Of a stretch of 64,000 nucleotides of DNA, positions 15,180-61,500 are shown piece by piece. The notes beneath the pieces were generated by a model. It was not told where the DNA came from. It saw only the letters and a list, made by a program, of their open reading frames with translations, and made no database searches. The position numbers and the translations under genes were made by a program. Source of the DNA: Chlamydiota bacterium (GTDB taxonomy: Bacteria; Auribacterota; JACPWU01); NCBI GenBank assembly GCA_016196885.1, contig JACPWU010000003.1, positions 21,633-85,632 on the forward strand, in the 5' to 3' direction. Within the stretch, counting starts at the first letter, position 1. Each line of letters starts with the position of its first letter.

Positions 15180-15398
15180 ATGAATACGACATTGACCATA
15201 CGGATCCCAAGCCGTCTTCGCAGGGAACTCAAGGAGATGAGTAAGCTTGAGCATGTGCCCATGAGTGAACTTGTTCGGGTTTCTTTGGCCAATTTTGTTT
15301 CTTTGAGAAAATTTCGTAAGCTAAGACAGCAAGTGCTCCCCTTTGCCGAGGCCCAAGGGCTTCTCTCAGACGAAGATGTTTTCAGAGTTCTTTCATGA
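15180..15398 (+). CDS. Ribbon-helix-helix (CopG-like) antitoxin
   Basis: MNTTLTIRIPSRLRRELKEMSKLEHVPMSELVRVSLANF is an RHH pattern. SD GGGAGG lies 10 nt upstream. The ORF-track start at 15150 overlaps the -10 motif, so 15180 is preferred. The gene overlaps the PIN gene by 4 nt. Confidence 0.6.
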   Translation: MNTTLTIRIPSRLRRELKEMSKLEHVPMSELVRVSLANFVSLRKFRKLRQQVLPFAEAQGLLSDEDVFRVLS

Positions 15399-15802: not shown

Positions 15803-15825
15803 GCAGCCGATCGTTCCTGGATGTT
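15798..15825. repeat. 28-bp direct repeat GATTAAGCAGCCGATCGTTCCTGGATGT, copy 1; the second copy is at 16058-16085
   Basis: Perfect 28/28 match. Copy 1 contains the PIN stop codon (gat TAA). Copy 2 contains the HigA stop codon on the opposite strand together with HigA's last 8 codons. The two copies bracket a 232-bp segment that holds MITE-like copy B. Confidence 0.85.
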
Positions 15826-15833
15826 CAATTGCT

Positions 15834-16002
15834 ATGAAACATTCATGCCGACTGAGGTCGGCACAAAAGGGGATGTTGTAGTCGCCCCATTTATGGGGCG
15901 GTCTATGACATTGGGGCATTGGGCATTGCCCGATAAATCGGGCGACTACAAGTCATCATGAGTCATTGTATAAGAATGACTAAAGACTATTTTCAGGTGA
16001 AA
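15834..16002. repeat. ~170-bp palindromic MITE-like element, copy B, inverted relative to copy A; core at 15878-15949
   Basis: Its reverse complement matches 12835-13013 nearly base for base, apart from a ~10-bp indel. The spurious ORFs 12607-12879(-) and 15958-16191(+) both begin MSHCIRMTKDYFQVK and derive from this repeat. Confidence 0.8.
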
Positions 16003-16059
16003 TGCGGGCTAGGGACGATGTCAACATTCTATTTTGGTGGAATGCTAATTTGCGATAGA

Positions 16060-16320
16060 TTAAGCAGCCGATCGTTCCTGGATGTCCCAGCTGGGAAAAA
16101 GGAGCACAGATGGGTGACATTTAAGTGCTCGAGCCAGCGCCTTTGCCCGTTCAACGCCCAATTTAATGTGTCCTTTCTCAAGGGCAGATAGGGTGGGCTG
16201 GGGAATGCCACTTAAATAAGCCAGTTTGTTTTGACTAAAATTCTGGAGCTCTCTCAAAATACGTACAGATTCTCCAACAGATACTTCAACGCTTCTTCTT
16301 GCGATTCTGTAATCTTTCAT
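16060..16320 (-). CDS. higA: HigA-like XRE-family HTH antitoxin
   Basis: LRELQNFSQNKLAYLSGIPQPTLSALEKGH is a Cro/C1-type HTH. Located immediately downstream of a RelE/HigB-like gene, with a 1-nt gap. Confidence 0.7.
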   Translation of the reverse strand: MKDYRIARRSVEVSVGESVRILRELQNFSQNKLAYLSGIPQPTLSALEKGHIKLGVERAKALARALKCHPSVLLFPSWDIQERSAA

Positions 16321-16321
16321 T

Positions 16322-16603
16322 TTACTTTCTCCTGTAATCGTGTGCTGTGATATCCATTACCTTCACGTATATCTTGTCGCTTTCTCTCCAATAAATCACA
16401 CGATATTGAAGACCGAGTCGTGACGAGCGGTATCCCTCCCATGAACCTTTCAGAGCTTCATCGTGAAAGCCTTTAATCTGACGTAAGCCCATGGGGCCTG
16501 AAATGCTAACAATGTCTTTCCACTTCTCATATCGTTTCAAAATCTCTATCGGGATCCGAAAAAGTTTCTTCGTTAACGCTTGATGTTCATAAACAATCCA
16601 CAT
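16322..16603 (-). CDS. higB: RelE/ParE-superfamily toxin (HigB-like, toxin-first arrangement)
   Basis: 93 aa, basic, with IKGFHDEALKGSWEGYRSSRL...YRVIY...VKVMDITAHDY resembling HigB/RelE. The toxin sits upstream of the HTH antitoxin. Confidence 0.6.
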   Translation of the reverse strand: MWIVYEHQALTKKLFRIPIEILKRYEKWKDIVSISGPMGLRQIKGFHDEALKGSWEGYRSSRLGLQYRVIYWRESDKIYVKVMDITAHDYRRK

Positions 16604-21060: not shown

Positions 21061-21138
21061 CTTTGCTTGTCATTGCGAGGAAGCTGTAGGCAGGCGAAGC
21101 AATCTTGAGTTTTGGAGAGCATTCTGGAAGTTTGTTAT

Positions 21139-21213
21139 GTAGTCGCCCCATTTATGGGGCTGCCCGATGAATCGGGCGACTACAAAAGAGGGCTGCCCGA
21201 TGAATCGGGCGAC
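21139..21213. repeat. GTAGTCGCC-family palindromic element (short form, B orientation) with an internal 31-bp tandem duplication
   Basis: GTAGTCGCCCCATTTATGGGGCTGCCCGATGAATCGGGCGACTAC followed by AAAAGAGGGCTGCCCGATGAATCGGGCGACTAC. Overlaps the spurious ORFs 21070-21327(-) and 21112-21300(+). Confidence 0.75.
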
Positions 21214-21296
21214 TACAAAAAAAGCATGATGGGGAGAACTTTCATTGCATATGATGGTCTCGAATACGGGTTCGCAATGGCAGAGTGGTGGGATAG

Positions 21297-50300: not shown

Positions 50301-53300
50301 GCGAGGTCGAAGGTGGAAGGCCGAGGGTGGAAGGAAAATCACACGAGCGAGAAGTTGTTGACTCAGGTGTCCAGGCTCCAGCTTTGAGCCCAGTTCGTCC
50401 AATGACCTACGAGAAATCTGCTGGAATTAATGTCCCTCACATCATGACCCTGGATGAAATTCGAAAAGCCATTGCTCAGATTCCTCGGGATTCTTACCCG
50501 GGACTAGGGTTGGCAGCATATGCAGACGGTCTTTTTGTTTACTTGGAGGTACGTCCATCTGTACGGGGAGAGGGATGGGAGATTCCAGATGTGGTGGAGT
50601 TTTTTGTTGAGGATGAGAGGGTGTATTTTGCTACGAGTTGGAAGGGATCGGTATTGTATTTCTACTGTTCTAATCAAGTGGATGAGGGTGGAGATTTGTT
50701 GCCTGCTGCTCCTATTGAAAGAGACGCCTTTGAAGCGGCTCGGGCGAGGAGCCAAGGGCAAGCGCCTTCTATAGAAGAAGGCGGATCGCCAGCTCCAACC
50801 GCTTTACCTGCCTCATCGGGCCCGACGAATCAGGTCGCTACAGGGGAGGGTTCGGAATCAGTTTCTAGTGAATTAACTCCCCCGGCCCCTCCTAAGAACG
50901 GTGAGTCTATAAGCGCAGGAAACCTTTTGCCTGATCAAGGAACGGAAAATCCTTCACTTGATTTAAAAGCAGAAAACCCTCCCCTGGGTGTAAGGGGAGA
51001 TGGAGGGGTTAGTGCATTAGCATCTGAACTTGCCCATACATCTAGCGTAGCTCAGCCCTCAAGAGTTGAATATCTCTCCCCTGGATGTGATGTCTCTGCT
51101 TTGATTGCTTCAGATGAAGCTTATGTTTCAAGAGAAGGCTTTCGGCATGAAGACTTGGCCCTACCTTTAGAGGAAGCCATTAAGCATGCTCTGAAAAGCG
51201 TAGTAGGCGAGAGCAATTTTATTTTTGGGAAAGAGACCTATTTTATTTCTTATGGGGGTATAAATTTTGTTGTGAATGACGGATTAGGAAACTCGTTACA
51301 GGCGCGAAGATTTTATAGGGTTACGCGGATAAAGACGTTGGAAACAATTCATTTTCTGGATGTGGCGCCGCGATTGATCAGAGAACATCATTTGTATGGA
51401 GATCCTAAAACATCCTATCGTGTGGAGCCTGCTCAAATTATTGAAATGTTTTATCCTTCAGAATTTGATCTTGGGGGAGGGGGGGATGAGGGGGGTGATG
51501 GATCTCTTGAATCCAATGAGGATTTTGAAGGTGAGAGTTCTTTGGCTCCTTTAGAAGCAGAAGATTTGGTGATGGAGGCGTGGGGTCATTGGGGGGAGTT
51601 TGGTTCATTGAATAGATCCCCTGAAGGGACTGTACAGAGAATGGGGCGGATTCAACATGATATGACCTTTGCCCGTGGTTTTCTAGCCAGGGCAGAAGGG
51701 GCTTCGGATGTTTCGAAAAGCTTGGTTTTGTTAAATAATGCAGAAGTGCTCTTAAATTCGGCATGGGAATCTATATCGGAAGCTGATCAATTAGGCCTAG
51801 ATCTTGACCTGCAGTTAGGGGTGGATGTTCTTAATGAATTGCTGCGACTCGAAAAGATCAGAGAAAAGATTTCTGGGGGAGAAGCTTCTTCAAAACTCAA
51901 TGGGCATAAAACGGTAACTCCCCCAGCCCCTCTTACTCCAAGAGGGGGGAAAACTGTGGATCTAAGAGCGGGGAAAGCTGCAGATCTAAGAGGGGGGGGA
52001 ACTGCAGATCAGGGTTCTTTAAATTTTTCTCGTACTTTAAGTATGGATCCCACGATTTTGCTCGTCTTATCTCAAATTTTTTATGGATTTGTCTGGGTTA
52101 GTTTGGGGGTTCTCTTACTGGCAGGTTTAATCGGATGGTATGTGGGGTCTCATTCTCAAAACGAAAGTCCCAGTTTGAAAAAGATGGCAGGGATTGCGAT
52201 TTTAATCTTGGGGCTTTTTGGGATTGCGATTTCTGCTTCTTCTGACCTTTCAAATCAGCCTTTGGCTGCATTGCTGCCTCAGCAGACTTCTGATCTGCAA
52301 GTAATTGCAAGTAAAACAGAAACTCCCAGAGTTGACGGACCAGTGATAGAAGAGAAAAGAGATGAACTAAAGCTAGTTGAGATTGCTCCACCTCTTAAGT
52401 TTGTAGAGCAGCAAACTTATACATGTTATTTGATTGCTTCTCCAAGTGATGAAACAGAAGAGGGAGATGAAGATGATGAGGAGCTGGATGAGATGACCCC
52501 TGTAGAGGCAGTGGCAGATGATGGAAGTGAACCAGATTATTTTGATATTGATTATTATGCAAGAGGAGCATCATCTTACACAATTTCTTATCGTTCTCAC
52601 ATGTTCGGAGTTTTTCCGTATGAGATCTCGGGAAAAGGGGATGCCGAAGATGAAAATATAGAAGATCAAGAAAAGGTCATCCCCGACTTCATGACCCCCC
52701 CTCCCGAAATCATCGAAATGATTATTCAAACATTTGTGAGAGAAGCCAAGGGGAATGGCCTGGATGATGCAGCCTTCAAAGAAGAGGCTGAAAAATTGGC
52801 TCGGGCCTTGCTCAGACCTGATGTGACGCCTCAAGATATCGAAGCAGCTGCAGATGCGATGATCGCGTTTGTTGCTGAAGACGGGGTTGAAAGTTCAGCT
52901 CAAGGAGCCAGTCTCGATGAGAGTGCGTTACGAAAAATGAAAGAAGATATTTTGCCGATTCTTTTTTATATGGCAGATCTTCCTTATGCCGAGTCGCTCA
53001 TTTTTTCTGTGAGCGATGATGGGTTGTCTCCGGAGCTTTTACGCCGTATGAATGTTTCTAAGGAGATGCTCAGAAAAGAGGTGGTTGTTGATCTAGGGGG
53101 TTCTGTAACCATCGATCTTACCCCGATTTCTCCGAATCTTTTCTCGATCGTCTTAAAAGAAATTATGTCTGCTAATTCTGAATGGATGAAAACAGGAGTT
53201 CTTCCGATTCACATTGCAACTTCTAGTACATTGCCAGAAGGCCTTGAGCTTGTCGCCATTTTTGATCGCGATAGGAACAAAATCAAAGTTTTCCCGATGA

Positions 53301-53407
53301 CCACCCTGGGGGGTACGCCTCCACTGATCCTCACAAATCGCCGAACACAGACTGAACGTATCCGAGATCAGGCTGGAACTGCTGGTTTACGTGGAAGGCA
53401 GTATTAA
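26318..53407 (+). CDS. Giant polytopic membrane protein (9029 aa): signal peptide, Tiki/TraB/GumN-like N-terminal module, coiled coils, a TolC/OEP-like helical region, more than 20 TM helices, and Gly-rich linkers
   Basis: 27-kb stop-free ORF. The N-terminal ~600 aa are paralogous to the start of giant gene 3, with near-identical DNA across 27292-27760 versus 56500-56960. TM clusters lie at ~28740-28960, 29940-30040, 43740-44700 and 47340-50030. Confidence 0.85.
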   Translation: MINSSPKRTRGFHLGLKCVSTLTLMAFFFTSVCETSLFAQEGLKVGSWKLEGKENKSPQVFSSNLKPPTSNLLSSVSIPSVRGDVLQRFQGKDDRLVIQLQDVHCHFEAQSNSAKIIKGLMDEHGSHGLHMVAVEAAGEPVDTSLLTSFPDPKLRKMFADYLMKIGKISGAEYLSIIQDKPLPLEGIENMWNYFRHVVQFNQGQVVKEKAEPILNKIQKAILELRKKVYSAEMRKFLNQSEAYEKGDMELGEYIKQLKVESSKLKEKDKNSLSSSNIQLSTSNIPSSSSYPNISLMLQMKKLEDKIDLKQVEKERVKLLEDLSHKLVKEEMVELMTKSLYYRLEKMDAWEYYEYLKTVVSRESLGVRGQNSTLEKTYPNLMKYIEMTEIFHEIKSDELLKECEKISEEVQDKLLKTKEEKALRQIEKDFIILRNFFELEMKKSEFQYYVENKERVSAENIVEGLEKLEGQGSRVKGQDNSPRSPLNLRGEEKQKQEREQVESSSPILKAGEKQRQVTFSPLSLRGDGGVTNDDITFLDSHLKSLEQFYRYSDNREEAMVQNTLRKMKENKSPIAILYAGGFHTDGLSKRLEQEGVSYVVVAPRITQFKLKTPYLSIIKNEPSKLEKMLMDLNKKEGSNLAAILISMKPEELEKIISDFQLADTDLVTVWIRDTIRLLRTDRTMALLILKTLMLKDQLKNLSALAHVGDKIQDLEKSWLNEFKRLSGENNFNSEEVEVIEFKLDRDVVVNGNTITLQVLISGKQSLTVTLNVHEGIEQMMNRIEDAFKPVALIPPASGEKGEVKKSGVPPWVKAVFSFFLVFLTKSLSAAPSVFVKAPLFDPGMDLVALHSHFAIWGSMWTYAAVIAIPLGLVFMFWALGKIKSRWVEARIRAIVEEVEQPQLLSETISSGTVSSRVHLFDFEFASDIPQSERERASAFFQDVLGDELQMWERNLLRQYPVLDSRELRFHVRFVNETPSEKWALKMEEGGLVVNLGAFLSAKGAKANLRSYFERLKVERERDLSGRRDLIALPQQVLKGDGRLFVDYSSGIRKVLVSQENAGSLWRLAGQIKGHPQRVVPLLDQLESQAVTAVLYDREGQPFSLLIYVPGFTDQVYDCPLIRDRTRYDELLSVYRSLSSIPSVEMVRRNDVSVEDVKDLLGDRDHVEFFVRWASKAAEKKRPSFWNVLRALALWMTKGERERFDEMLEKYFGTSWLGRLMAMGFCLFIGTAFSAIIIGCLGSPTKADAAYFDVSSHGGTLSAEVQKAPSQKGGDVESEGDIQADIERLEKGIQALNEENASATSGSGAKEEKAPPVEEVKKTEGGKKKAEPEWTKKKREEYERDLAKEREAFKKKAGAPHSENLTLQPTENLTDLKGKIQAIEEQKRLEELTIDTLEYLSAQLRVETLNQQAASLEQEIVALKDQLNQEEKLSPTDKESLQKRLHGKEEKFQTCQQSLQELNAEINAMRHDSKIEEGFKEKSDEELEKAMKGHLKEYFILHVRLQRYQAMMQDLLGTKKRDSGVQAQSSSSAKVQLIPSSQDLKPAQGSSPQSLRESIKYFIERGVKHFDEMSQDDDALAQYLYDQYRLKGRGELKGEVRIGWQNYYSYGTAGSDSYEAQSEEDVVATLFFDKTIDNAKKEQMKSAFWRLEAQHRMQLQGQYDAWAGIYQLTGEVLKAKANIEVQKKFETEAKSLVDQMQERFLKPREMDEAQGGDPRIFQTRYLNRWHEAQASRIQAEEAYETACLRLKGLSGMAVDDEIQIPGSLEEWSVFDIESLFKEISEELKNEGVNAKFMDQSVQISTALVNEAAFWKKELDENDVSLEMKLGAGLQGRWNMDTSGGFEWPFNPFVSGEFELKISLLDCVAKAQGRVGEVINQMAVLRMDEAKKGLYFKYLNAQAELEAAQRILKVLEKVLEVELKEMSVEPPVLQSDLELEWDRIGVSRNLEIARNEALARIASARLKMTGYRAQIPPEELKKVDALVDFDQLFGPDFGALNVSAFLKALATEWVGGEVTDLTSVPWEKIFPSDMAERMKGIKDYDHDLRIDANQDLLKKIIEKMNELIQQEDFLFRHPSIGSLSFDGSAMQFLNILIQDGVLNAQDYHPKQDLTPEEKFQIYTLNRLVLEEKYPEVFKVQLSFPIAAQKAVQGSGALRGQELEEQAHTARGKVAFNSRIPVVQGGLNVNFNLGTYGDPIGYRFDQGQPFIGDNPHAHLTLTGGTSLWLAATGPLPIFGKTSEQRAHVKAEKGWIQAREEEITNQLMEGLYNVFKNVALAQSDLQRLQKELAELRAFKELLERKHTEVPLTEEQYLSQAQKVWLRIMEKRIEINRMESTLEGYRIDVLSRMGDEHLKGQFLDWPKEPSEQRARMIQMGKEVASGIIPQSNLNLETAQVNVAREVLGNTSAAPTITWTVGAAAGPSFPELFRAEDQNEAWRVLPFLAGWVGIHGTLPQPGLKKAQVNAAQQKVFEEEGELERLKQEQTAEELLDWREYTRLEVQVDEISELLAEAKSLYQDIQEDLKIPGQWGKQYQPENLLRVMNLISMVEEEWTRVEWSLNGFKHVNLRKLGVDESNFEERKAQALARLEKGEVPQTGVASSSSQNLAQARSQTTLNPQGPHSLIQVAQRAILYHPNVESAYLKVQALEAKKKEAQAHKWPAVTLSGGARSDSPKLANERYPSIYNSGYAGYEPGIEGQKPEWPPKVQASGSATGNVRFWDDSEVREVEAELGAARADLMQAVLNAFYESVLLYYDLVFEMEKAKAYSQDSEHKYALARSMWLRERLLLASQIDTHEVGIEALTSLLRLSPSGMGQAQNRARSLLMIDFDLVPSEGLPDISSLVAQMHSVLSTGTGSTEIENLLKELCARDPKSVIFQALGEKERAAGQAVRRDRLGTWQLVFDSPDWRKGQVEAMLTWTKVFLDGGKKESAIQLHKRLEKKAKREAKEYERQQLLDVAQAFKEVLSQAGLLEVELEKIKVSEKQVELLMERLDVPSNDQANPHDLKTHASDVQDSFSKLLEAWTILRDVQVSSQTAVAEMERRFWTLKKTLALAQAHGSPDPERKRYLDEVQAFLDSTHVAEVSATAPVQVEPATKLSTELREGLKAQKALDKKLEEGTEEPRVPVSRPVELPSRVGVQRNQVPAFKSLVPEPPLEYQARDETLPEAKKENHRAEPKPEEPPKPNVGEEEHTFLNPEGWVWRSMRWCRGWKIGRSILNWLGEDEVVATLERLHLLENGQQLLRRQREIEVDDASRIKELKKKGTQAQERKAREELREIRTRLEEEREQIFEEHYGLFLHTVDYTQAHHDKLEERTKTEPYILWRSFIDLPMFPTYPDPIELKNVPWIVQKMRNAMSAGHFSGIDPRIITENGLKWVFNTYGQIRGRSPQDMNDYFDAWTLLGSHIDQKLASLRKELGLENSDEREWNDWLNGTFFPNGFASTFSGLLGIERSSALTDQELGNPHAGIRRLGYFSALSSLAVKMRHENPKDSMETMIGKMVAPGGDLDHSFDWMKTRALHFGQGTLSLQSDEKFIKDDLHYQESIFVDEFSQLKERKFAQAVIDHTDAARILYSVMYSSDFGIVDKNGSGLEHADLETLRRKLSMSDDYESQSFVLSIASVAMAHHISPEKMLDLAGKARRVMGPEIANIYASRLTREAFLTEPYFAQDAGKLRHLVRAQKFHKEKAQALLAQGDTAMAAENEKMAKEYRERAQIEEQALKKRLVRSLLMYWTNWAVEFLLEREKDPKVDPIEELKKFFRLLPQYQAVMSNDPMGLYPDRSFDIMNPRDSGVLVYWTKIGAIRGMEAQELRTLHHRMVSIGSMDVFRRVLKLFDIHAGNELDPENRDQMGAAMMYAVRANKWNWGDSDVIRYLENVEWILKNQEMKLTMIEQWYLGGEVEKAERMAAFFWKDMSSLEEVLTARAGRPDQEWRVSNDQLRMLWTAGHEKAQDIDLKYGKDYKKALLYSMVSLVDEFMVRWGVDQVSLVQLEQGVNRFLDRVKTEWKKAEISSDKLFWQRMNRQDVALAFVITLRRQGLSTENAFAHLQDLQRAVERSQSSLNYLESLLGSETSNQVREAVERGDRQALLLLKREIMDGSKVCIDPNVDRYLISLLQFISSEGAVHMDLMLDKMAEVLKAHRKSHLSLQTDLVPGLQIWQAEMSVYGWGELEKVFGKDILQQIQEAVRLDKPEDVAKITLSPDIRHRAEEAMVGSSRGRPVEQYIRYVLLILEIEKAPLTLPFHEVTFFGEDFFKRGASPTFILDYFKARTYLRSSYSLYHRAAGNFESLEPFIEEVDRENKTIMGSQKERRLFVQPLTPPEKLSPGEEGSYLYRFEMGLDSYFDMGNHDIQMSALIVRGEREMLWKFEEMRVKHIPELREQLAEARERGDEKLIEQLEKALEKWKEARIVPFTYREVKEFLEAIKKGEMDKHEIDLFFETALYFQTKLLDSGLVTLDYFNGVSYLVNHFWNEPGLFEWLMQYRTETKIVELWTQEPDKKDLGPEGNRWKIYSLLGRMIAQGTPSSELVERLVNLDLELSGKGVPNDRSKTRMKEGIEAFQILRDVMIEMLGPSLHNQEKKTAFRRLIEELLESPSSLGPSLENWLWGVLESRIGITEAQDWKLNKERLSQVRKDDEKTKADTADRANAIMRERPNLLMKTDLKKSDLRLLGMDPKTADEFWQYLTQSGFLEPNRELDGLLAGNVSQDLRIRLVADERLGGELEALRVGMSEEMREEMTRLLGSPLMQGLDDVLFSSVNAVEELLSAKIPEPLKRYLPVTLLSSMTALEKVKWIREEFLSDPATFELVMSRSVQVQPREPGMEHALEQLKTILLSKNASLKGIFEKHADAVGRIQGALRDAGPSSREYLEGLLALVLPDKLEQSHGKDVVNDNDPFKPLKPLQFTLKWERKLSPELRLHLGQLFEDLIRHREEFEIQPFTDENRSSIRQILGIASTDRNQAFEGLKAYCRDEAVITRALDRAVEGDIEGGLALLEPFAKEDWILRGVFRLKAEKADVQTAVAILDQLYPGFHIDPGYLETLETRMKEGYRASDIRHYLEHRERANALLLVMHNLDDEQVKRSLLRLEGRFPDNFSELFPEERKKFDDAVDGPLKTEITQLAYLVEAYRKLPYRGPRVQFKKTGILYPTYHPEVRVLMALPENELEAKLVQALQDSLGIRLTPEQLERLKMRDISNGDSGEVVNRILNFGNDTADVLRKLSYSNFGVDWRVKLMLSNLEGLDREMPDTVRDELNSALGEDVVHQIETALQMTRTSADSLHQSHISMSEPLRTELTGLLGAPLLDSMNVIFASETVSLGELGEGKGLEPLKPLLGETLVSSIQAVLLDHTIPDPQKITTLRNILSRDEHGATILRMVSLFPGDLAIPNTLDKLHEILPDLDNNSLTILVHLRTLLDPDYFNRLRVLVLADTTACDVIRYHRMDTKDPAYEYFRALRVIVDDKSRVDLLKEIVLDQKFSSPQEGKKISPPKLSEQARQWLSLTMLLTEGSYRPELYNLIRENPATVVSRMRGMILVDQASVDIMANAYVREGLSYHDARQLRDGCTILSEAILSKHKDLRIGSKAPELTEMVYYLSTVLQDSVWGQPVVPTPVVTPSMIREVVEEWFGTIKADLNLSEADYKALIDQVTKNALTPDGKKVRVAPHEIRLVVENARAIWTGAKFTGEEFFPDKPNPKAEKAWKLLRIYWEQENKGRPRTFGDVFIHALRSGKTNLLEYLPQEDLASRSLPQEEELEQYLERNAEILKSVGFGDLHISDIREHELKMNDAMEKVWTYLLKDDLEKKYGDKIETPKGSDEKIPKILLGMGAVGWGVGILANVKTSVKSGRISKILKGSAWLTGIAGRLLFRVACHFLIAFAAAYLFDLSFERGYLDSFLESLGDFFGFIPPKFETGSLPRIFYVLKFMSLNVYKNGLPLLAILVSFFSIYAGGLVAHGLFDRKNQLKNRTRKIVHTAIEILLPVGVFWGLVFTESFGPIGPAFEALGHLVTLTLIFILTLYHTGAIRKLILETLPHYLKVYLKALFLKENMDREKEHALAPLRMNLYMIPHRFVMLIFAIFYGVLITMHVSSSPWLTALVTAMVSLLFWSNAYVSVTGVGDVIIAPRTLNEHPWIKNHGIMPMKYHSALFVPFIASSKTDARDVLMLVHRSFLENVKMCEVTKDDHGTYTIQHFDGTKDPDVPIEFFNQKLRERIQGLSRGGEDFIKIPDPRDQLKVIINSQVKDKEVMQLEIELIKKFQEELGDDRFIWIHRNMDDPFLRKPGTMYDALAGLLLKYFRPAVYTGSVIDKREKIIRTDKESGKKVELLRYDPSDRYGLRERRVFKVEGMKISDDADFSFHMYFYGDDPENPLFEIEEGALYEIQYREEGDRTIRERVHLAHEHEYEISDLDLNHVSIMSRETGKPFKDSRGRVLTPRPLRFSMDSILEYKDSEDRAVKLSIDPEGNTLCLEDYTDPRTNIFYPRGSIYSRAGTHELDFTYHLYKVDWKTDKATLVRDEENKPLRVDIVKRTYTANENHVDLQFLNDFKDTEPAVFLRVGDLTTPKGELPKYKGQELTSKNFEYSGDVLEEGKIITTKIIGSKQFRLRAARDQNGNLIPENEVEILYFDLVPVDGENAKPEIRAVRIATPEDLLHRTRKGDLISGGKINEEVEKKQAVLIKEDGSLEFGENFLGNALKKGLWKTTYGNGFFLKDRKGNLVQDPNQEGRPFIQGQFFGEGDWRRQNPLLPIWKVNPDLIGGFQESGVLTAKEARQMSEKNTVLGDVHSLHMGKRGDEKHYLISRLKEGGAPTPGRQVRGGFLVNEADDYFEVTRENLSEATRKGNDTGGARKGALVHKRIELKNGRWIEVWSVVAEQARDFDLLKPVEDKDTMILREKGKPPILGKKGKEGSGLFYLHNAQTGQVVLDLAGHKVEADHAVEIFHQPDGDNEFLIGTVHYVGSRQALEREFDNDYSIFQEELPFDLGSWGRAHYPTTQTIAQNKLFYPLALMWRLAGKTAFFGKGSHTGSTFLRRIILMEATKAIQRSHDHTEAGAGGSALIEAVEAGRPRRGVAWAYRIVFLGIGLLASAFAPSYISKPVWIIFLLMVNPWWLKNEFKHKGKQMEEAHSSYTFSKARLQEWRVGDNKIQHIKNLYYRAFVYFIRSYTQPRNFPKAIKTLFQAFKETPTLIEKFITWMNFMGIQNDPTFAGWLGLLFFTVFKPGMRELAFPWLSDLLFISAMMLLISVTYQIRPVLRRIFREPSPNMRVWLLRTGRNLLAFVIPIIIAVLVGDFVSTEWTGLTQDLFDGLSHFFRMSYSLTVGQGNRFLSINPWIHIFNSVPYVLTMVLGWGFTSVGRDIVREFYRGMYLVFCSTLVLIRNLWNVTEAGIVALKSHVRSIPAKWTTGSVIEGFMMDNLIKTTDFFKNGLPLFLIGSGPVVLTVLGIIQPTYLGTSYTIIIFSLMLGWLADKWTTDYGMKRFYRFPQMGVAEDRIQELVFSLEEFNLRYKNSDKDEYAFRRRIRQIGGPVLVFSKDKGYELGERDLARLYLSKNYFLAEQELQEIFPLLYIQDNLLDQNINRILKRINKRREGHVELLQKEVLEAILNILRGKENEIKETDLRPFLEYLGEIYDLNHRDVERLYAWCAMNFEKFNRRIVSTFFTWPYEPELRKWLKDRKEKKSWQTIEGKTLDQKLEIFAERFLFKPGVFAGHTRFWQYPLAQDGPWWAYLLVFSAVFVPAWLFFCAYLGFFSFIVPLSFALLATLGMLGSGQYLALSIKSLAHPEARKHQVSLPRYLLQTIFKKLMFWKSGSENVMTTLFYSVLALLKIAAIGLLFNFSHVSAIILFVAGTIAIMSWAMKRSHKILFAVFGTVFTFGLFAEFLLMVEISVGATLFLSALPTLPLVFAAIALYLLYHILNYYLARTDEFWKSAEDEKRMDAIVQSGLGLREELEPGFQEGNNFRTTNPDTQLLIDLGILEGVTSWNRQGGGGSDSEPSDVPPAPWAPPLGEVEGGRPRVEGKSHEREVVDSGVQAPALSPVRPMTYEKSAGINVPHIMTLDEIRKAIAQIPRDSYPGLGLAAYADGLFVYLEVRPSVRGEGWEIPDVVEFFVEDERVYFATSWKGSVLYFYCSNQVDEGGDLLPAAPIERDAFEAARARSQGQAPSIEEGGSPAPTALPASSGPTNQVATGEGSESVSSELTPPAPPKNGESISAGNLLPDQGTENPSLDLKAENPPLGVRGDGGVSALASELAHTSSVAQPSRVEYLSPGCDVSALIASDEAYVSREGFRHEDLALPLEEAIKHALKSVVGESNFIFGKETYFISYGGINFVVNDGLGNSLQARRFYRVTRIKTLETIHFLDVAPRLIREHHLYGDPKTSYRVEPAQIIEMFYPSEFDLGGGGDEGGDGSLESNEDFEGESSLAPLEAEDLVMEAWGHWGEFGSLNRSPEGTVQRMGRIQHDMTFARGFLARAEGASDVSKSLVLLNNAEVLLNSAWESISEADQLGLDLDLQLGVDVLNELLRLEKIREKISGGEASSKLNGHKTVTPPAPLTPRGGKTVDLRAGKAADLRGGGTADQGSLNFSRTLSMDPTILLVLSQIFYGFVWVSLGVLLLAGLIGWYVGSHSQNESPSLKKMAGIAILILGLFGIAISASSDLSNQPLAALLPQQTSDLQVIASKTETPRVDGPVIEEKRDELKLVEIAPPLKFVEQQTYTCYLIASPSDETEEGDEDDEELDEMTPVEAVADDGSEPDYFDIDYYARGASSYTISYRSHMFGVFPYEISGKGDAEDENIEDQEKVIPDFMTPPPEIIEMIIQTFVREAKGNGLDDAAFKEEAEKLARALLRPDVTPQDIEAAADAMIAFVAEDGVESSAQGASLDESALRKMKEDILPILFYMADLPYAESLIFSVSDDGLSPELLRRMNVSKEMLRKEVVVDLGGSVTIDLTPISPNLFSIVLKEIMSANSEWMKTGVLPIHIATSSTLPEGLELVAIFDRDRNKIKVFPMTTLGGTPPLILTNRRTQTERIRDQAGTAGLRGRQY
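26600..28130 (+). other. Tiki/TraB/PrgY/GumN-like module shared by giant proteins 2 and 3
   Basis: QDVHCHFEAQ early in the module and ILYAGGFHTDGLSKRLEQEGVSYVVV near the end resemble the TraB/GumN GxxH and GAGHL.G..GL...L...GY.V motifs. An inserted coiled-coil / low-complexity segment separates the two halves. The equivalent module in giant 3 spans about 55880-57340. Confidence 0.35.
31100..35200 (+). other. TolC / outer-membrane-efflux-protein (OEP)-like helical repeat region inside giant protein 2
   Basis: Segments such as AILYHPNVESAYLKVQALEAKKKEAQAHKWPAVTLSGGARSD, VREVEAELGAARADLMQAVLNAFYESVLLYYDLVFEMEKAKAY and VQGGLNVNFNLGTYGD...QSDLQRLQKELAELRAF have the OEP-family pattern of (N)P.L..A...V.AA.A.V..A....P.LSLSG plus heptad helices. 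Confidence 0.4.
53325..53401 (+). repeat. 77-bp 3'-terminal segment of giant gene 2, repeated at 54070-54146 (75/77 identical) and in degenerate form at ~55146-55176
   Basis: tgatcctcacaaatcgccgaacacagactgaacgtatccgagatcaggctggaactgctggtttacgtggaaggcag versus the same sequence with two substitutions. The copies bracket the DUF433/DUF5615 TA pair, and the degenerate copy follows the MNT/HEPN pair. Confidence 0.85.
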
Positions 53408-53419
53408 GATTCTTCAAAA

Positions 53420-53430
53420 TGTGTTACAAT
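53420..53430 (+). promoter_or_regulatory. TGTGTTACAAT extended -10-like motif upstream of the DUF433-DUF5615 operon
   Basis: Identical 11-mer to 15141-15151, followed by a GAGGAGAGGAGAG Shine-Dalgarno and ATG 53461. Confidence 0.4.
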
Positions 53431-53460
53431 TGCCTCGTTATTTTGAGGAGAGGAGAGTCT

Positions 53461-53685
53461 ATGAATCCCTGTATAGAAATTAATCCACGCGTTTGCAGTG
53501 GGAAGCCAGTTATTTCGGGAACGAGAATTCCTATCACGGTCATTTTAGATCAACTGGCGGAGGGTCTTTCTCTTCAAGCACTTCTAACAAAATATCCTGA
53601 ACTTTCTTTGGAACAAGTGACGGGTGTTTTACGCTATTGTCATTCTGTTATAGAGCATACAGAACTAGAGAGGGAAATCATTTGA
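53461..53685 (+). CDS. DUF433-family small protein (antitoxin-like partner of DUF5615)
   Basis: MNPCIEINPRVCSGKPVISGTRIPITVILDQLAEGLSLQALLTKYPELSLEQV is the DUF433 pattern. The start is set at the internal ATG with a strong SD; the ORF-track start at 53419 overlaps the promoter motif. Confidence 0.65.
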   Translation: MNPCIEINPRVCSGKPVISGTRIPITVILDQLAEGLSLQALLTKYPELSLEQVTGVLRYCHSVIEHTELEREII

Positions 53686-54056
53686 AGTCTTTGCATTTAT
53701 TGTTGGATCAAATGATAGATTCAAATGTTGCAAACGAACTTTCTCAAGAGGGGTATGATGTCCTAAGAGTGTCTCAAGTCGGTATGGCGAGATCAGATGA
53801 TGAAGAGATTTTCAGTCTTGCCATTAGAGACAAGAGAATTTTGATCACATTGGATGAGCATTTTGGAGATTGGGCGGTCCTTCCTTTGAACCAAATACAT
53901 TCAGGAGTGATTCGAGTGAGGGTTAAGCCTACTTCTGGACGTGCGATTGCTTCTCTCTTAATTCCTTTTTTAGATAAACACAAACAAAAAAGTTTTAACA
54001 ATTATCTTGTTATTATTGGGGTTTCAGGTTCTCGCTGGGTTAAAACTGTTGCCTAA
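53682..54056 (+). CDS. DUF5615-family PIN-like (Mut7-C-type) putative toxin
   Basis: LKSLHLLLDQMIDSNVANELSQEGYDVLRV...ILITLDEHFGD. TTG start overlaps the DUF433 stop (aTTTGA). The ORF-track start at 53637 lies in a different upstream context. Confidence 0.55.
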   Translation: MKSLHLLLDQMIDSNVANELSQEGYDVLRVSQVGMARSDDEEIFSLAIRDKRILITLDEHFGDWAVLPLNQIHSGVIRVRVKPTSGRAIASLLIPFLDKHKQKSFNNYLVIIGVSGSRWVKTVA

Positions 54057-54228
54057 CGGCTCAAGCATTTGATCCCCACAAATCGCCGAACACCGACTGA
54101 ACGTATCCGAGATCAGGCTGGAACTGCTGGTTTACGTGGAAGGCAGATGTAAACTGTGATAGAATGTTAAGAGTAGCCAGGGAAAAGGCCATTCTGAAGA
54201 TTCTACAATATTCTGTGAGGATGATGCG

Positions 54229-54558
54229 ATGTTTCTGAGTCCGCAAGAACGCTCTGCGTTGCAAGATTTCAAAAAAGTTTTACTAGAACGCTTCCGTTCG
54301 CAAGTGAGCGAAATATTTCTTTTTGGTTCCAAGGCGCGTGGCGATTCGAAAAGTGATTCGGACATTGATGTTTTGGTGATCACCCAGCAAGATGACTGGA
54401 AACTCAAGGATAAAATAGGACGACTTGCAACGGATATTCTTCTCGACGAAGGTATTTATTTGTCTATTAAAGTATTAGGGCAAAAACATTATCAATACAT
54501 GAAATGGTTGGAGGCGCCGTTTATTAAGAATGTTTTAAAAGAGGGTATTCTTGTGTGA
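54229..54558 (+). CDS. Minimal nucleotidyltransferase (MNT) antitoxin, paralogue of 14675-14992
   Basis: IFLFGSKARGDSKSDSDIDVLVI is the NTase signature. Overlaps the downstream HEPN gene by 4 nt. Confidence 0.75.
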   Translation: MFLSPQERSALQDFKKVLLERFRSQVSEIFLFGSKARGDSKSDSDIDVLVITQQDDWKLKDKIGRLATDILLDEGIYLSIKVLGQKHYQYMKWLEAPFIKNVLKEGILV

Positions 54559-54968
54559 ATATTGATGAAAAAATTCTCGAATATATTCGAGAGGAAATGA
54601 AAAAAGCAGATCGTGCCTTGAAATCGGCTCAAAAACTTTTGTCGGAGTCCCTGACTGAGGATGCTGTTTCCCGTGCTTACTATGCAGTGTTTCATGGTGC
54701 TCGTTCGGCACTGATGTTGAAAGGAATTGAAACGGGTTCCCATAAAGGTTTAATCAGTCAGTTTGCAATGCATTTGGTGAAGCCAGGTTTGATAGAGGTT
54801 GAATATAGCGATATTTTGAGGCAGGAAAAAGAGGATCGAGAAACAGGAGATTACGAGACTTTTGTCACCTTCAGCAGTGAAGAAGCTATGAAGTTGGTGA
54901 ACGATGCTCAAAAATTTGTCTTGCGAATACGAAAATTTCTGCAGGACCAGTCTGGAATTGTCCTTTAG
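54555..54968 (+). CDS. HEPN-domain protein, paralogue of 14281-14682
   Basis: AVSRAYYAVFHGARSALMLKGIETGSHKGLISQF...RETGDYE aligns with the minus-strand HEPN protein. GTG start. Confidence 0.7.
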   Translation: MNIDEKILEYIREEMKKADRALKSAQKLLSESLTEDAVSRAYYAVFHGARSALMLKGIETGSHKGLISQFAMHLVKPGLIEVEYSDILRQEKEDRETGDYETFVTFSSEEAMKLVNDAQKFVLRIRKFLQDQSGIVL

Positions 54969-55032
54969 GGATAAAGATGGAAAATTTTTATAGGCATATG
55001 CACTTGGCTCCAGTATTCTTGATCCCTCAAGC

Positions 55033-55088
55033 GTAGTCGCCCGATTTATCGGGCAATCCATGTATGGCCCCATAAATGGGGCGACTAC
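55033..55088. repeat. GTAGTCGCC-family palindromic element (A orientation, short spacer)
   Basis: GTAGTCGCCCGATTTATCGGGCAATCCATGTATGGCCCCATAAATGGGGCGACTAC. Confidence 0.8.
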
Positions 55089-55590
55089 AAATGGACGACA
55101 CTTTTCCCCAATCTTTTCTCGATTTGCCCAACGGCAACGGGTCGAATCCGAGAACAAGCGGGGACTGCTGGTTTACATCTCTCCATTTTAATCTCTTTAA
55201 TCCTCCTCCTTTAAGCCAGATTTTACAATAGACGCGAGAACTCAAGAGCAAGAGCTTGAGCCAGACAGGCCTTTGCAGTCCCTGTGGGATTGGCCTGAAG
55301 AAAGCGCAGGTATGCATAAAAAGATGCCTGTCGAGCATTTCTGAAGGCCAAGTACCCCAAGATGTTGCGTCGAATTCCGCGGCCTATTGCAAAATCTGGG
55401 TTTAAAGACGAGATCCTTCGTCGCAAAAGAGCTCCTCAGGATGACAAATGAGGGAGGTTCTAGAACGGATCTTATTTTTAACTTTCTCTCCTAGAGTAAC
55501 TTAAATTATTAAAAACTCCTCATTTTTCTTTTGACCTTCTGGCCCTTTCAGATGTCTTTAATGTTGAAAGCTGTTATAGCAAGGTACCTT

Positions 55591-58500
55591 ATGACAAGTT
55601 TCAATGTAAATTATGAAAAATCCTTTCGGAAATTCGTTTCCACTCTCCTTTTAATCACTTTTTCATTTACGTATCTTGTTCAAGATACGGGATTTGCACA
55701 AGAACTCAATACAGCGTATAGCGTTCAGCGGACAGCGGACAGAAAACCAGCGGATACGATTTCTCCTAAATCAGCTCTGCTTGAAGTTTCTCATGGTGCA
55801 GAGGTTTCCATCCCCGCAAACTTAGGCGATGTCATTGACCGCTATGAAGGCAAAGACGACCGCATGATTATTCAGATTCAAGACGTGCACTGCCATTTCG
55901 AGGCCCAGTCTAATACCGCTAAAATTATTTCTGACCTTCTCCAGAAACATGGGGATCACGGTCTTAAGATGATCGGTCTTGAGGCGGCAGAGGGTTCTGT
56001 GGATACAACTCTTTTGACTTCCTATCCTGATAAAAAACTTCGAAAAGTCCTCGCCGAATACCTCATGAAAAAAGGAAAAATTTCCGGTGCTGAATATCTT
56101 TCTATCATTCAAGATAAACCGCTTCCTCTTGAAGGCGTAGAAAACATGTTTCATTATTTTGAACATCTCTTCCAATTTGACCGAGGGTTGGATGTAAAAG
56201 ACAAAGCCTTGCCCATTTTGGACAAAATAGAAAAGGCAATTACAGATCTGCGCGAAAAAATTTATTCCCAAGAAGTGTTGGAAGTTTTGAACAAAGAGAA
56301 GTCCTATTTGGAAGGGGATACTCAGATTGATGAGTATGGAAAATATTTGGTAGACCAGGCGTTAACTCTTAAGCTGGATGTTGGGGGGCAGAAAAATTTT
56401 CAAGGCATGATGAAAGTGGCAGATTTAGAAAAGCAAATAGATCTTAAAAAAGTAGAAGAGGAAAGAGTTCATGTCCTTGAGATTTTAAGCAGAAAGCTCG
56501 TGAAAGAAGAGATGGTAGAACTGATGACGAAGAGTTTGTATTACAGACTCGAGAAAATGGATGCGTGGGAATATTATGAATATTTAAAGACTGTCGTGAG
56601 TCCCGCGGGGACTATAAAAACATGTCGTGAGTCGTTAGGGGTGAGTGGTCAGAATTCAACGTTAGAGAAAACTTATCCCAACCTCTCAAAATATATCCAA
56701 ATGACTGAAATATTTCACGAGATCAAGAGTGATGAGCTTTTGAAGGAATGTGAAAAGATATCAGAGGAAGTACAGGATAAGTTGTTAAAGACCAAAGAAG
56801 AAAAGGCGCTCAGGCAAATTGAGAAAGACTTTATTATTTTGAGAAACTTTTTTGAATTGGAGATGAAGAAGAGTGAGTTTCAATATTATGTGGAGAATAA
56901 GGAGAGGGTTTCAGCAAAAAACATAGTGGATGGGTTGGAAGAAATCCAGGATCCAGGGTCCAGGGTCCAGGGTAACTCCCCTCGGTCCCCTCTTAAACTA
57001 AGAGGGGAGGAAAAACAAAAACAAGAGCAAACAAAGAGCGCTTTTCCTATTTTAAAAGGGGAGGAAAAGCAGAGATGGGTAACGTCCCCTCCCCTTAGTT
57101 TAAGGGGAGATGGAGGGGTTACAAATGACGACATCACATTCCTCGACTCTCATCTCAAAGACCTCGAACAATTCTATCGCTATTCAGACAATCGTGAAGA
57201 GGCGATGGTCCAGAACACGCTCCGGAAAATGAAAGAGAACGAGAGCCCGATTGCGATTCTATACGCGGGAGGATTTCATACGGATGGACTCACGAAGCGC
57301 TTGGAAGAAGAGGGCGTGTCTTATGTCGTTGTTGCTCCCAGAATCACACAATTCAAACTCAAGACCCCGTATTTATCTATTATCAAGAACGAGCCTTCGA
57401 AATTAGAGAAAATGTTGATGGATTTGGAGAAGAAAGAAAAGGGGACGATGGCGACTCTACCGTTAGAGGGAGATCTAAAAACAGAAGTTGCTGCTCTCAG
57501 TGGTTTGGAGGCAGATGATCCAGCACGAGTGAATGGAGAGGAAACGATTCGGCTTCAAATAGCAGCTCTTAGATCGGCTTTGATCGTACGTGGGCTGCTA
57601 AATTCCGATATTTCGGCAAATGATATTACTTTCACTCGAGAAGGTGACACCGTCACTATTCTCATTTCTGGCATTCCCAGATTTCAAATCACCCTGAATT
57701 CTGAAAATAAAAATAATCCTGAAAAGTTGGTGGAGAGTATTGTGCCTATTGAAGTTTCTGCTCCGACTGAGCAAACATCGGAGTGGGTAGGTGGCCCTCT
57801 TCGTAGTTTGGACGGAAGTTATCAGGCGTTAGAGAGTGAGGAGATTAAGACGTTGAAAGGTCTTGCAAGCAAAAAAGGGGGATATGCGATTCCTTCCAGT
57901 ACGGAAACGTTTGGTGATGACGAGGTGGTTTGTCGCGTGGTGGATTATGATGAAAAGAAGGGAGACCCTGTTTATGATATTTTTCAGCCGCACAGTATCA
58001 AGGCCTACCATTATATGGCGGCAGCCGTTCCAAATTCTGAAAGACCAGGTTTAACAAGAATAGTGGTTTATGCGTTTCTCCCTCGTAGGCTTGACGAAAG
58101 GGAATACGCTTTTCGCAAGAGGCATGAAATTTTAGAATCGCTTTGGGAGTACAAGCTTAAAAAAGAGGGAATAGCCTACCGGAACCGCCTGGAAAAGAAT
58201 CCTTCAACTCCTCAACCTCTCTGGATGCAATTAGGCCTTTCTCGGGATGTTGCGGCTCATATCCTCGCTTGGGGACAGCATGTTCTCGAAGAGGGTTGGG
58301 ATAATATTGAACAGTGCCCCTTCTTGAAAGAAGAAATTCAAAAATTAAATCTTGCCCAACTTCAGGCCATTTATTCTGACGAAACCATTCAAGAGAGAAA
58401 TCGCATTCATAATCCTTTGAGAAAACATTATCTTTCAGGTTTTAACGATGCCGATTGGCAGCGACTTGAGACCTTTGAAAATTCTGTGAGGGATTTGGCC

Positions 58501-61500
58501 AGAAGACTTACTTTTCCTTCAAAGTTGGTTCAGGATTTAGATAATCAGGGAAGGGGTCGAAAAGTTTTGTGTCTTGGAGCAGGTGGAGACTATCAAGAGG
58601 CAAATTTCTTTAGCTCCCGTAATTGTGGTGTGGAAGTGGTCAAAATGAGAGGGGACGCAGAAGGTGATGATAAAGACTTTGAGGTATATGAAGCAGAAAC
58701 ACAAGAAGCAGCCGAGGAACGAATCATTAATGACATCTTAAGAAGGCTTCAATTGGATGAGGGGAAAAAATATGATGCCATTTATGCCCGTTTGAGTTTG
58801 CACCATTTGCCCCAGAAGTATCTTTTGCGGGTGCTCAGAAAAATATCCGACATGCTCGAAGTGGGTGGAAAGTTCTATTGGGTTGTCAAATCCAAAGACG
58901 ATGTTCTGTATCAAGGTCGGACTGGCGAACCTGGAGAGGACGGTTTGACTCCTTATAGAGATCAGCCCTCAGGACAGGAGCTGAAGAGAAGGTTTTTTAC
59001 GCCTGATGAAATGAAAGCATTGTTAGAAGCGAAAGACGATGCTGAGAAAACCATTTTTGGATTTGAAGTATCTACAATCAATCCTCGTTTTGAACGCTTG
59101 ACCAGAAGAACAGCGCCCATCACACAGGACAATCATGAATCAAGTTTGTTGGAAGTAGTGGCGGAAAAGAAAGAGGATGTAGCCCTTGCTTTGGATGTTC
59201 CTGCCCGAGTGGTGCGTGTGGGGGCCAAGCTGTTTGACGGTGAAACAGGGGCACAACCGATCGAGCCAGATGTTCGCCCGAGCATAAAAGGAGATGTTGT
59301 GGATGTAACAGAGCTGTCAGATGAGGAAGGACTGACGGATGAAGCGGTAGGCGCTCGTTCTGTCATGGCTGGAGAGGGTTGTCTTTCTATACTGGCAGCA
59401 GGGGGGAGTTCGCGCATGGCCATTGCCAAAATGCCAGAGCGTTATAAGAAGGATATTGGTGATGCTGATATAAATTCAAAGGCATTGGTTCCACTTGGAA
59501 GTTATAGAGCAAGGACGATAACCTATTTCGGTGCATTTTTTTATAACATAAAGAGATTGTTTGAGGGTCTTCAGAAAGAAGCGGAAGGGACAAATATAGA
59601 AAATCATTTGGAGGATAATGACATTATGTATCTTACAAATGACACATACGCCCAAGAGCAGGCAAAACATTTAAGGCAAAATGAAAGTTTTGGACTGCAA
59701 CAAAGAATTTATTCTTATGTTCAGCCCTGGGTCAATAAAATTTATGCCCCGCCTGACCAGATAGGACCGCTCAGGAAGAATTTGAATAACGAAAAATTTG
59801 ATGCAGCCAAGAAAAGATCCGAGGAGATTCAAGCCGCTTTTGACAATGGCGATGAAAAAGCGGTGGTGCATAAAGAAAAAGGTCCTTGGGGTCATGGGGA
59901 ATACTTGCATCAGATGGTGGTCAGCGGCCGTTTGCTCGATATGTTGGAAAAGAATAAAAAATGGATTTATGTGAGAAATATAGACAATAGCGGAGCTAAA
60001 TTTGACCGGGTTTGGTTGCGTGCCTTGGGTCTGTTCCTGAAAAAGGGTGTGGGTTTTATGCCGGAGGTATCACCTCGATCCCCTGGACAAAAGGGGGGGG
60101 GATTGCTTGTGGTTGGTGGTAGGCAGGGGATTGGTGAGGACGCGATTATTGCGGCTACGGCCAAGGCAAAAAATGATTCAACTCTTACCGCAGAAAATTG
60201 CTATTGGTTTAACAATGGGGCCGGATTCATGACGCCCTCATTTGTAGCGAGTTTGTATATGAGTGAGGGGCAGACGATTGATGCGTTTATCCAGGAGCTT
60301 CAAGATGCGAACGGGGATGTGGAAAAATTAGAGGCGGTTGCAGAGAGGGGGAGGGGTAAATTCCTAAAACTATTTGACGTCAAGCCAACTAAAAATGGAG
60401 AAGGGGCGGCTCCATTAGAAACGAATCTATGGACTTCATCCATTGTGGCTCCCGTAGATCAATTGGTTGAAGCGGTCGGGGTTCGCGGAGTGCGTGCGTT
60501 GATAGAAAACGAAGGGATGTTGTTAGCTTATTTTGCCTTATCGTGGGAAGATAAAATAAAGGTTTTAGAAAAAATTCGATTTTTTTCTGCGAAACAATGG
60601 GAACTCCCCGAGGAGACTGTAGAGAAAAATAGACGTCAACTGGAAGAGAATTATAACGAAGCCCTTCGAGCAAAATGGGGGCAAGAAAAGGTCAACAATC
60701 CTGATTTAATGCAACCGCCTCGTCGAACTCTGACGAGGGAAGAGGCCCTGTTGGTATCAGAGACGTACGAGGGAAATTTGCAAGTCGCTACAGATATGCT
60801 TCGATACATATATGAGGCCCCGTTGGTCACGCCGGGGGTTTTTAGAGAGGCTTTATCAGCGGCTGAAGCAGGTGCTTCAGTCAGTCCTAATTCAAACGTT
60901 TTTGCTGAAGTCAAAAATTTATTGGTTCTAGCTTTAACCGCAGCAGCTTTGTTTGTGGCACCAGGCCCACAGGCAAGGGCGGCTCTGCCTTCTGTGGAAC
61001 CTATAAAATCAGCGCTGGTTCAGAAAGACGGGGGCCAGCGGCCAGCGGCCAGGGAAACACATTTAACTTTAGCTCAGTTGATTGAAAGAGAAGGGGGGGC
61101 TTTAGCGGATTTGAGGCGGACACGGCATGCGGTCTATACCGTCATGGCCAAGACGCCTCAAGAAATGAAGACAATGGATGAACAGGTTGAGAGAGGTGAA
61201 GCCAGTCAACTCCGAGAAGGGGTTTATACAATTTATGGATATACTCCAAGTCAAGAAGGGGTGTTAAAGGCTCGTGTTGCCCGAGGAGAGGCGAGTGTAG
61301 AGTATCGGACGGTTTCGAATCCGCCTGTGTTGAGTCAAGCTGATCAGGCGCTTGCCCGTAGTGTCGAAGGGCATCTTGCAACGCATCGTCTTTATGAAGC
61401 GGACCCAGCTTTCAGAGAAGAAGTGGGTCGAATTTGGAAATCCCTTTCTAGGCAAGATCGACAGATTTTTGCGGAGCTTCTCTTTGTGCGAAGAGGGGAT

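Follow-up and report, generated by a model that had tools for sequence, protein, structure and literature searches.

The subject of this report is a 64-kb stretch of DNA (the window) from a metagenome-assembled genome (MAG), in which the 3' end of a giant gene, giant gene 2, recurs twice downstream of the gene itself, each time behind a small toxin-antitoxin (TA) operon. The gene end in use will be called copy 1, the displaced ends copies 2 and 3, and the two operons TA units 1 and 2. The explanation to which we give the most weight, with confidence about evenly balanced against doubt, is the serial insertion of compact TA units which lack an integrase and carry a surrogate 3' end for the target gene, of the type represented by prophage e14 in icd and by the tandem accretion of cis-mobilizable elements (CIMEs). 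The features that carry the argument are directly visible in the DNA: the geometry of the repeats, the intact reading frames and stop codons, the coding-type divergence of the oldest copy, the one-operon cargo, and the recurrence of the arrangement at a second locus. The window corresponds to bases 21508-85507 of the 86,830-bp contig JACOUD010000054.1 in MAG GCA_016178005.1, whose proteins are labelled Chlamydiae or Chlamydiota bacterium at NCBI.

Copies 1 and 2 of the 77-nt repeat are identical at 75 of their 77 positions, lie on the same strand and are spaced 745 nt apart, and a 28-nt core of the repeat occurs exactly twice in the window as against zero times in shuffled sequences. An earlier reading of the DNA (the original prediction) had proposed that the terminal 77 bp of the gene recur directly behind a DUF433-DUF5615 gene pair, and both parts of this proposal hold, since copy 2 begins 13 nt past the DUF5615 stop codon. 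Copy 1 ends 6 nt (TAT TAA) short of the end of the gene 2 stop codon. The two differences in copy 2 both fall at codon position 2 (L->P and Q->P), and its translation in register gives LIPTNRRTPTERIRDQAGTAGLRGRQ, followed by an in-frame ATG TAA (CAG ATG TAA, where copy 1 has CAG TAT TAA). Because it combines an in-register translation with this ending, copy 2 is a complete alternative gene end. In both of the nearer copies the frame stays open through the repeat and is closed by a stop after one further codon. The original prediction was correct about the presence of the repeats and the TA units, but it missed the stop codon belonging to copy 2, as well as a further giant gene (giant gene 3) that lies downstream.

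Copy 3 matches the gene end without gaps at 43 of 60 positions, with its best block (29/34) at 55143-55176. Copy 3 scores 43 in local alignment, whereas the highest score among 2000 dinucleotide shuffles of the spacer 54969-55590 was 34, so the degenerate copy that had been predicted at ~55146-55176 behind an MNT-HEPN gene pair is real, although it is longer than was claimed. In the frame of the gene, copy 3 reads ...TATGRIREQAGTAGL, as against TQTERIRDQAGTAGL in copy 1, and the peptide core is RIREQAGTAGL in copy 3 and RIRDQAGTAGL in gene 2. All five differences in the best 34 nt occupy third codon positions, four of them being synonymous and the other a D->E exchange, while over the full 60 nt the third position accounts for 10 of the 17 differences. 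By our own arithmetic, the probability that five out of five differences would fall at third positions by chance is ~0.004, from which it follows that both lineages diverged while encoding a selected peptide. Copy 2 is too close to copy 1 for this test of coding divergence to be applied. The three copies behave as coding sequence, that is, as coding relics, and not as structured DNA sites.

The same signature is found in a well-characterized insertion. In Escherichia coli K-12, the cryptic prophage e14 begins inside icd and supplies the last 165 nt of that gene, while the 165 nt that it replaced survive beyond the prophage as the pseudogene icdC. The icd and icdC sequences are 92.7% identical over the 165 nt, with 11 of the 12 differences at codon position 3 and two of them producing a D->E exchange, which is the third-position pattern that distinguishes copy 1 from copy 3 in its best block. 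The likeness extends to the architecture, because e14 and phage 21 in icd, like the inserts described here, lie within the last codons of a protein-coding gene, supply a surrogate end with a stop codon that keeps the gene intact, and leave the original end beyond the insert. The two cases differ in scale and in equipment: e14 is 15 kb long and has its own integrase and excisionase, whereas the present units are single TA operons of ~0.7-1 kb which have no recombinase and are stacked two in a row.

The inserts themselves are compact. Insert 1 measures 745 nt when one repeat is included, and its 668-nt cargo is made up of a 59-nt leader, the DUF433-DUF5615 operon and a 13-nt tail. The second cargo, of ~1 kb, comprises an 82-nt leader, the MNT-HEPN operon and ~150 nt that include a 56-nt palindrome resembling repetitive extragenic palindromic (REP) sequences. 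Read in one orientation, the locus therefore consists of the gene end, the 668-nt cargo, a 97% copy, the ~1-kb cargo and a 72% copy, and this alternation of ends and inserts, in which the nearer copy is almost identical and the farther one diverged, is the product expected of tandem integration at an attachment site in a gene end. Since copy 2 has undergone only two changes, insert 1 must be young, and a young insert that is flush with a single operon points to the insertion of a small unit instead of the slow erosion of a large island.

The gene content of the two units had been named correctly in the original prediction, as the Pfam searches confirm with E-values that all pass the cut-offs (DUF433, 7e-21; DUF5615, 2e-20; NTP_transf_2/MNT, 5e-10; HEPN, 8e-18); the MNT protein of TA unit 2 is also matched by the NCBIfam MntA-like model. 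With their adjacent small genes and their toxin and antitoxin domains, both units are predicted to be type II / VII toxin-antitoxin modules. The promoter-like TACAAT motifs said to precede both operons were not flagged by a simple two-hexamer sigma-70 scan, and "promoter" stays a resemblance. The claimed identity of TGTGTTACAAT at 53420 with 15141 is exact, but it exceeds chance only weakly (three matches with at most one mismatch, compared with 0.75 expected). TGTGTTACAAT together with ATTGCCTCG stands upstream of both an RHH-PIN_3 operon (15141-15182) and the DUF433-DUF5615 operon (53420-53437), the gap between the two motifs being ~20 nt wider at the former, and these unrelated operons may share leader sequence. 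The likeness downstream of both HEPN genes in the window and upstream of both MNT genes is within chance (p 0.28-0.8).

An arrangement with the same architecture occurs at a second locus, where the repeated sequence is the 29-nt end of an antitoxin gene of the HTH family (copies A, B and C; Table 1). Copies A and B match exactly and are parted by a 232-nt non-coding insert (15825-16056), while copy C, which matches at 21 of 29 positions, lies past two TA operons (RHH-PIN_3 and MNT-HEPN) from copy B. Copy C reads SFQEQSAA-stop as against DIQERSAA-stop, so that the stop is kept through a change from TAA to TGA. No other 29-mer in the window matches at 19/29 or better, and none in 20 shuffled windows matches at 21/29 or better. 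Because the gene end at this second locus is unrelated to that of giant gene 2, it can be concluded that the gene-end process recurs in this genome, with a site that is specific to each target gene. Gene-end duplication is absent behind giant gene 1 and behind the 1624-aa open reading frame (ORF), both of which were checked. A common core of the 77-mer and the 29-mer was also considered, and was rejected as not significant (p 0.17).

Table 1. Coordinates of the features discussed in the text, counted from the first base of the window
Feature	Position	Strand	Description
Copy 1	53325-53401	+	Giant gene 2 end in use; reads ...LILTNRRTQTERIRDQAGTAGLRGRQ, then Y and stop
Copy 2	54070-54152 (including stop); 77-mer 54070-54146	+	Displaced gene end
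Copy 3	55117-55176	+	Diverged displaced gene end (72%), behind MNT-HEPN
TA unit 1	53461-54056	+	DUF433 53461-53685; DUF5615, PIN-like, 53682-54056; stop/start overlap
TA unit 2	54229-54968	+	MNT nucleotidyltransferase 54229-54558; HEPN 54555-54968; stop/start overlap
REP-like double-hairpin palindrome	55033-55088		56 nt, between TA unit 2 and copy 3
Giant gene 2	26318-53407	+	Single unbroken ORF, 9029 aa, ~27 kb; target gene with repeated 3' end
Giant gene 3	~55591-64000	+	Paralogue of giant gene 2; runs off the window
Copy A	16057-16085	-	Last 8 codons, stop and 3 nt of HTH antitoxin gene 16060-16320
Copy B	15796-15824	-	Exact 29-nt repeat of copy A
Copy C	14232-14260	-	Degenerate, 21/29; past two TA operons from copy B
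RelE-family toxin	16322-16603		Partner of the HTH antitoxin
Giant gene 1	ends 12803		Runs off the left window edge
TA operon cluster	13043-16603		Behind giant gene 1
1624-aa protein	21297-26171		Glycoamylase/TSP3 protein

In the model that we favour, a compact unit consisting of a promoter-like leader and a single TA operon would have recombined twice into the last ~26 codons of gene 2. Each incoming unit would have brought its own version of the last codons and the stop, keeping the 27-kb frame, and would have pushed the earlier end to the far side of the insert, leaving one end in use and two displaced downstream. Repeated use of one site would in this way lead to the tandem accretion of elements which have att-like repeats and no integrase of their own. 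The recombination would depend on a site-specific recombinase whose gene lies in another part of the genome or belongs to a helper element; the units would pass through a circular intermediate, and the events would have taken place in the order just given. The persistence of TA cargo may be due to selection against the loss of addiction modules, which recombination between the flanking repeats would otherwise remove. The model specifies two junctions: the empty site would consist of the gene 2 body, the 77-mer and ATGTAAACTG, and the circle would join the end of TA unit 1, ...GGCTCAAGCATT, through the 77-mer to its start, TATTAAGATTC.

Like known elements of gene 3' ends, insert 1 is flanked by direct repeats of the gene end, the target ORF is intact and the divergence of copy 3 is of the coding type, but there is no element-encoded integrase beside the att site, and the locus therefore fits the integrase-less CIME subclass and not an autonomous element. 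The participation of CIMEs without an integrase in tandem accretion at target-gene ends has been documented, and the accreted members of the integrative and conjugative or integrative and mobilizable element (ICE/IME) families can have att sites without integration genes and frequently carry TA modules (PMC5704250). An example is provided by Streptococcus thermophilus, where elements related to ICESt1/ICESt3 occupy the 3' end of fda; it is the members without integration genes that the present units resemble. Known CIMEs are decayed islands on the kilobase scale that sit beside a functional helper, while the units described here have the size of an operon, the youngest of them has the look of a recent insertion, not of a decayed island, and the window shows no helper. 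The evidence supports the view that the locus is a miniature, integrase-less version of a known process, and not a new kind of system.

Several observations weigh against this interpretation. Domain searches of the window ORFs tested (64 kb) found no integrase, excisionase, recombinase or transposase domain, in agreement with the original prediction that no integrase is visible in the window. The genomes and metagenomes scanned yielded none in which the site is vacant or occupied by another cargo, which leaves the mobility of the units putative; the nearest non-self DUF5615 homologue is only 61% identical, and TA unit 1 has no closer relative. The right boundary of the similarity is not constant, since it falls at position 77 and beyond in copy 2 and at position 66 in copy 3. 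Copy 3 is moreover untidy, since it carries a REP insertion and perhaps also a second, incomplete left half, and the shared left flanks of copies 2 and 3, GGCTCMAGYATT, are not significant as an element-side arm (p ~0.09). Finally, we know of no well-studied precedent for a 745-nt element without a recombination gene at the end of a protein-coding gene.

With respect to the untidiness of copy 3, the REP-like palindrome in front of it may divide an earlier left portion of the repeat: when the palindrome is taken out, the stretch 55020-55102 can be aligned with the 77-mer over its first 24 nt, with 5 of 1000 shuffles equalling the alignment in what is a post hoc test. A PNLFSI-like match at 55095-55124 was dropped (tblastn E 6). 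On the other side of the copies, the 13-mer AGATTYTACAATA has only two exact sites in the window, 51 nt after copy 2 and 41 nt after copy 3, and this placement suggests that the repeated unit is the gene end together with a downstream leader, an extension that all of the leading models can take in.

The databases were also searched for relatives of the locus. An exact look-up of the TA proteins returned only the source contig, the contig of the twin MAG (105 kb, in the assembly that includes MBI3265558-61) and two Logan contigs identical to the window; these short contigs match the region at 100%. A scan with a degenerate coding pattern gave two matches in the GTDB representative genomes, among which the source genome is not included, and two in the JGI metagenomes, and in each case both were unrelated. 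The C-terminus of giant gene 2 had no match, either as 400 aa (52205-53404) against an index of 5.8 billion proteins or as 600 aa (51605-53404) against 1.84 billion representatives, a negative which is limited by the fact that these libraries missed even the source protein, very long proteins being probably absent from them. The N-terminus of giant gene 3 returned only three remote homologues, in unrelated contexts, and two papers on the giant genes of Omnitrophota contain nothing comparable to gene-end copies flanking TA units.

A first alternative is homology-driven insertion without a dedicated recombinase, which we regard as unlikely. Small circles or fragments from other strains, carrying a TA operon and a stretch of the gene end, would have entered by a RecA-type single crossover (Campbell-type) or by homology-facilitated illegitimate recombination, and the repeat would simply be the homology that they carried. 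Repeat lengths that vary with the locus (77 and 29 nt) and have no common core would then be natural, as would the lack of a recombinase in the window and the near-identity of copies 1 and 2, which is of the degree found between strains of one population. The origin of a circle that contains both a TA operon and a gene end is left unexplained, however, and a homology as short as 29 nt would serve RecA only marginally. The frame and the stop of the target would have had to survive each of three or four independent events, and copy 3, at 72%, is too diverged for an efficient crossover unless it decayed later, whereas its differences look selected and not decayed.

A second alternative is that the displaced ends are the stumps of deleted paralogues of the giant gene, further tandem copies that would once have stood in the spacer. 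Giant gene 2 (annotated as 9014 aa in the NCBI record) and giant gene 3, which the ORF lister leaves out because its ORF reaches the window edge, are tandem paralogues, and both TA operons occupy the 2.2-kb spacer between them. Over their N-terminal 735 aa the two giant proteins share 62% identity, and the DNA includes an 85% identical stretch (56435-57438 in gene 3 and 27231-28222 in gene 2). Each deleted paralogue would once have had its own TA operon, and after the loss of the gene bodies only the last codons would have been left upstream of the TA genes. The tandem paralogy is in keeping with this idea, and so are the coding nature of the relics, which have their own stops, and the occurrence of the window's only two exact AGATTYTACAATA sites in the segments behind copies 2 and 3, as would be expected of paralogous intergenic regions. 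Stumps are nevertheless quite improbable, because two 27-kb deletions would be required, each ending ~13-150 nt from a TA operon and a few dozen nt before a stop, because copy 2 is 97% identical to gene 2 while the surviving paralogue is only 62% identical in protein, and because the 29-nt case, which is laid out alike at a small antitoxin gene, cannot derive from a giant gene.

Very improbable, in our estimation, is the possibility that the repeats are long target-site duplications produced by a transposition-like or staggered-break mechanism of insertion. Exact or near-exact direct repeats do stand right beside the two youngest inserts (77 and 29 nt), and the 232-nt insert at the second locus holds an element of ~179 nt which is present twice in the window at 98-99% identity and was therefore recently mobile. 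A target duplication of fixed length is contradicted by the difference between 77 and 29 nt, neither TA unit is bounded by terminal inverted repeats, and no transposase was found in the window. Neutral decay would in addition be expected of such duplications, as opposed to the third-position-only differences and kept stops of the old copies, and flanking repeats are lacking around the second copy of the ~179-nt element.

The original prediction had compared the locus to serial cassette capture of an integron-like or dif-like kind, with the 3' end of the giant gene as the attachment site. The general idea survives, since the order of the repeats fits serial capture at a gene end, but both analogies fail, and a cassette array in which the 77-mer acts as a folded attC-type or a dif-type (Xer) site has a probability close to negligible. 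TA cassettes are frequent in chromosomal integrons and pdif modules, and the integron arrays and the Acinetobacter pdif modules that carry TA genes resemble the present locus in their serial single-operon TA cassettes, each followed by a related recurring site. Their sites are non-coding, however, and either structured (attC) or bound by Xer, whereas the repeat described here is the coding end of a neighbouring gene, is conserved at the peptide level, and has neither feature. The suggested folding of the 77-mer gave no attC-like structure, the 77-mer and its flanks folding no better than shuffles on either strand (z +0.08 to +1.7, and +0.4 to +1.7 for the 77-mer itself); no GTTRRRY core or paired R''/R' cores were present in or near any copy, and no IntI was found in the window. 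The best dif-like sites on the two strands of 53301-55600 match at 16/28 and 15/28, which is the chance level in a comparison with E. coli dif only. The repeat has no Rfam match, and the window contains no tRNA or tmRNA.

An assembly artefact, in which strain variants in the MAG were joined through the shared 77-mer, is hardly credible: the source is a short-read MAG and Logan contigs break at or near the repeats, but the two substitutions of copy 2 are private to it and its left junction to the tail of TA unit 1 is unique, features that a mis-join in the assembly graph cannot create. All four TA proteins are common to the two MAG assemblies with consecutive accessions in both, and L002, a Logan contig of a different run, has its first base exactly 30 nt short of the copy 2 end, where a genuine repeat would create a branch in a k=31 graph.

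The neighbourhood of the second locus contains other repeats. The ~179-nt non-coding element is present as inverted copies at 12835-13013 and 15834-16002 (127 nt at 99% and 42 nt at 98%), and the pair brackets a 2.8-kb block of four TA modules right behind the stop of giant gene 1; it could represent an invertible segment or two recent insertions resembling miniature inverted-repeat transposable elements (MITEs). Direct repeats flank the right copy of the element only, those at the left copy being within chance (p 0.07). The REP-like double hairpin (GTAGTCGCCCGATTTATCGGGC ... GCCCCATAAATGGGGCGACTAC) occurs at four intergenic sites (12888-12961, 15876-15949, 21138-21220 and 55033-55088), including a tandem 33-nt REP-like pair at 21157-21220, and no transposase of the REP-associated tyrosine transposase (RAYT) type is present in the window. 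Within the cluster of TA operons, a MazE-like ORF (13043-13318) stands in front of a 52-aa ORF whose similarity to the PemK/MazF model is confined to the final 40 positions of that model, and the pair (13043-13473) looks like a decayed TA module with a truncated toxin, as judged from the sequence. A perfect hairpin with 23-nt arms and a 2-nt loop (15027-15074) lies between a minus-strand MNT gene and the RHH-PIN_3 operon, which are divergent. At the other end of the window, the leader of giant gene 3 contains a 29-nt inverted repeat (55203-55231 and 55384-55412, 83%, with 152 nt between the arms) which includes a third TACAAT motif and has no Rfam match; this repeat may represent either a structured leader RNA or a small MITE.

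A more far-reaching extension of serial gene-end insertion can be envisaged, which we consider decidedly unlikely. It would involve a dedicated, integron-independent cassette system, in which operon-sized units carrying surrogate last codons of a chosen host gene are stacked behind that gene by a trans-acting recombinase. The units of such a system would be mostly TA modules, together with the ~230-nt non-coding element, and the TA stacks might conceivably act as anti-deletion locks on giant genes of 13-27 kb.

If the serial insertion of TA units with surrogate gene ends is the correct explanation, no new class of mechanism would be involved unless the recombinase proves to be unusual. It would mean, however, that gene-end integration with a surrogate end works at the scale of a single operon, and not just for prophages and islands, and that this process is found in a poorly known Chlamydiota lineage, where it would provide a concrete route for the build-up of TA modules between giant genes. 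The combination of a displaced gene end, a kept stop codon and third-position divergence would also constitute a sequence signature by which similar events may be recognized elsewhere.

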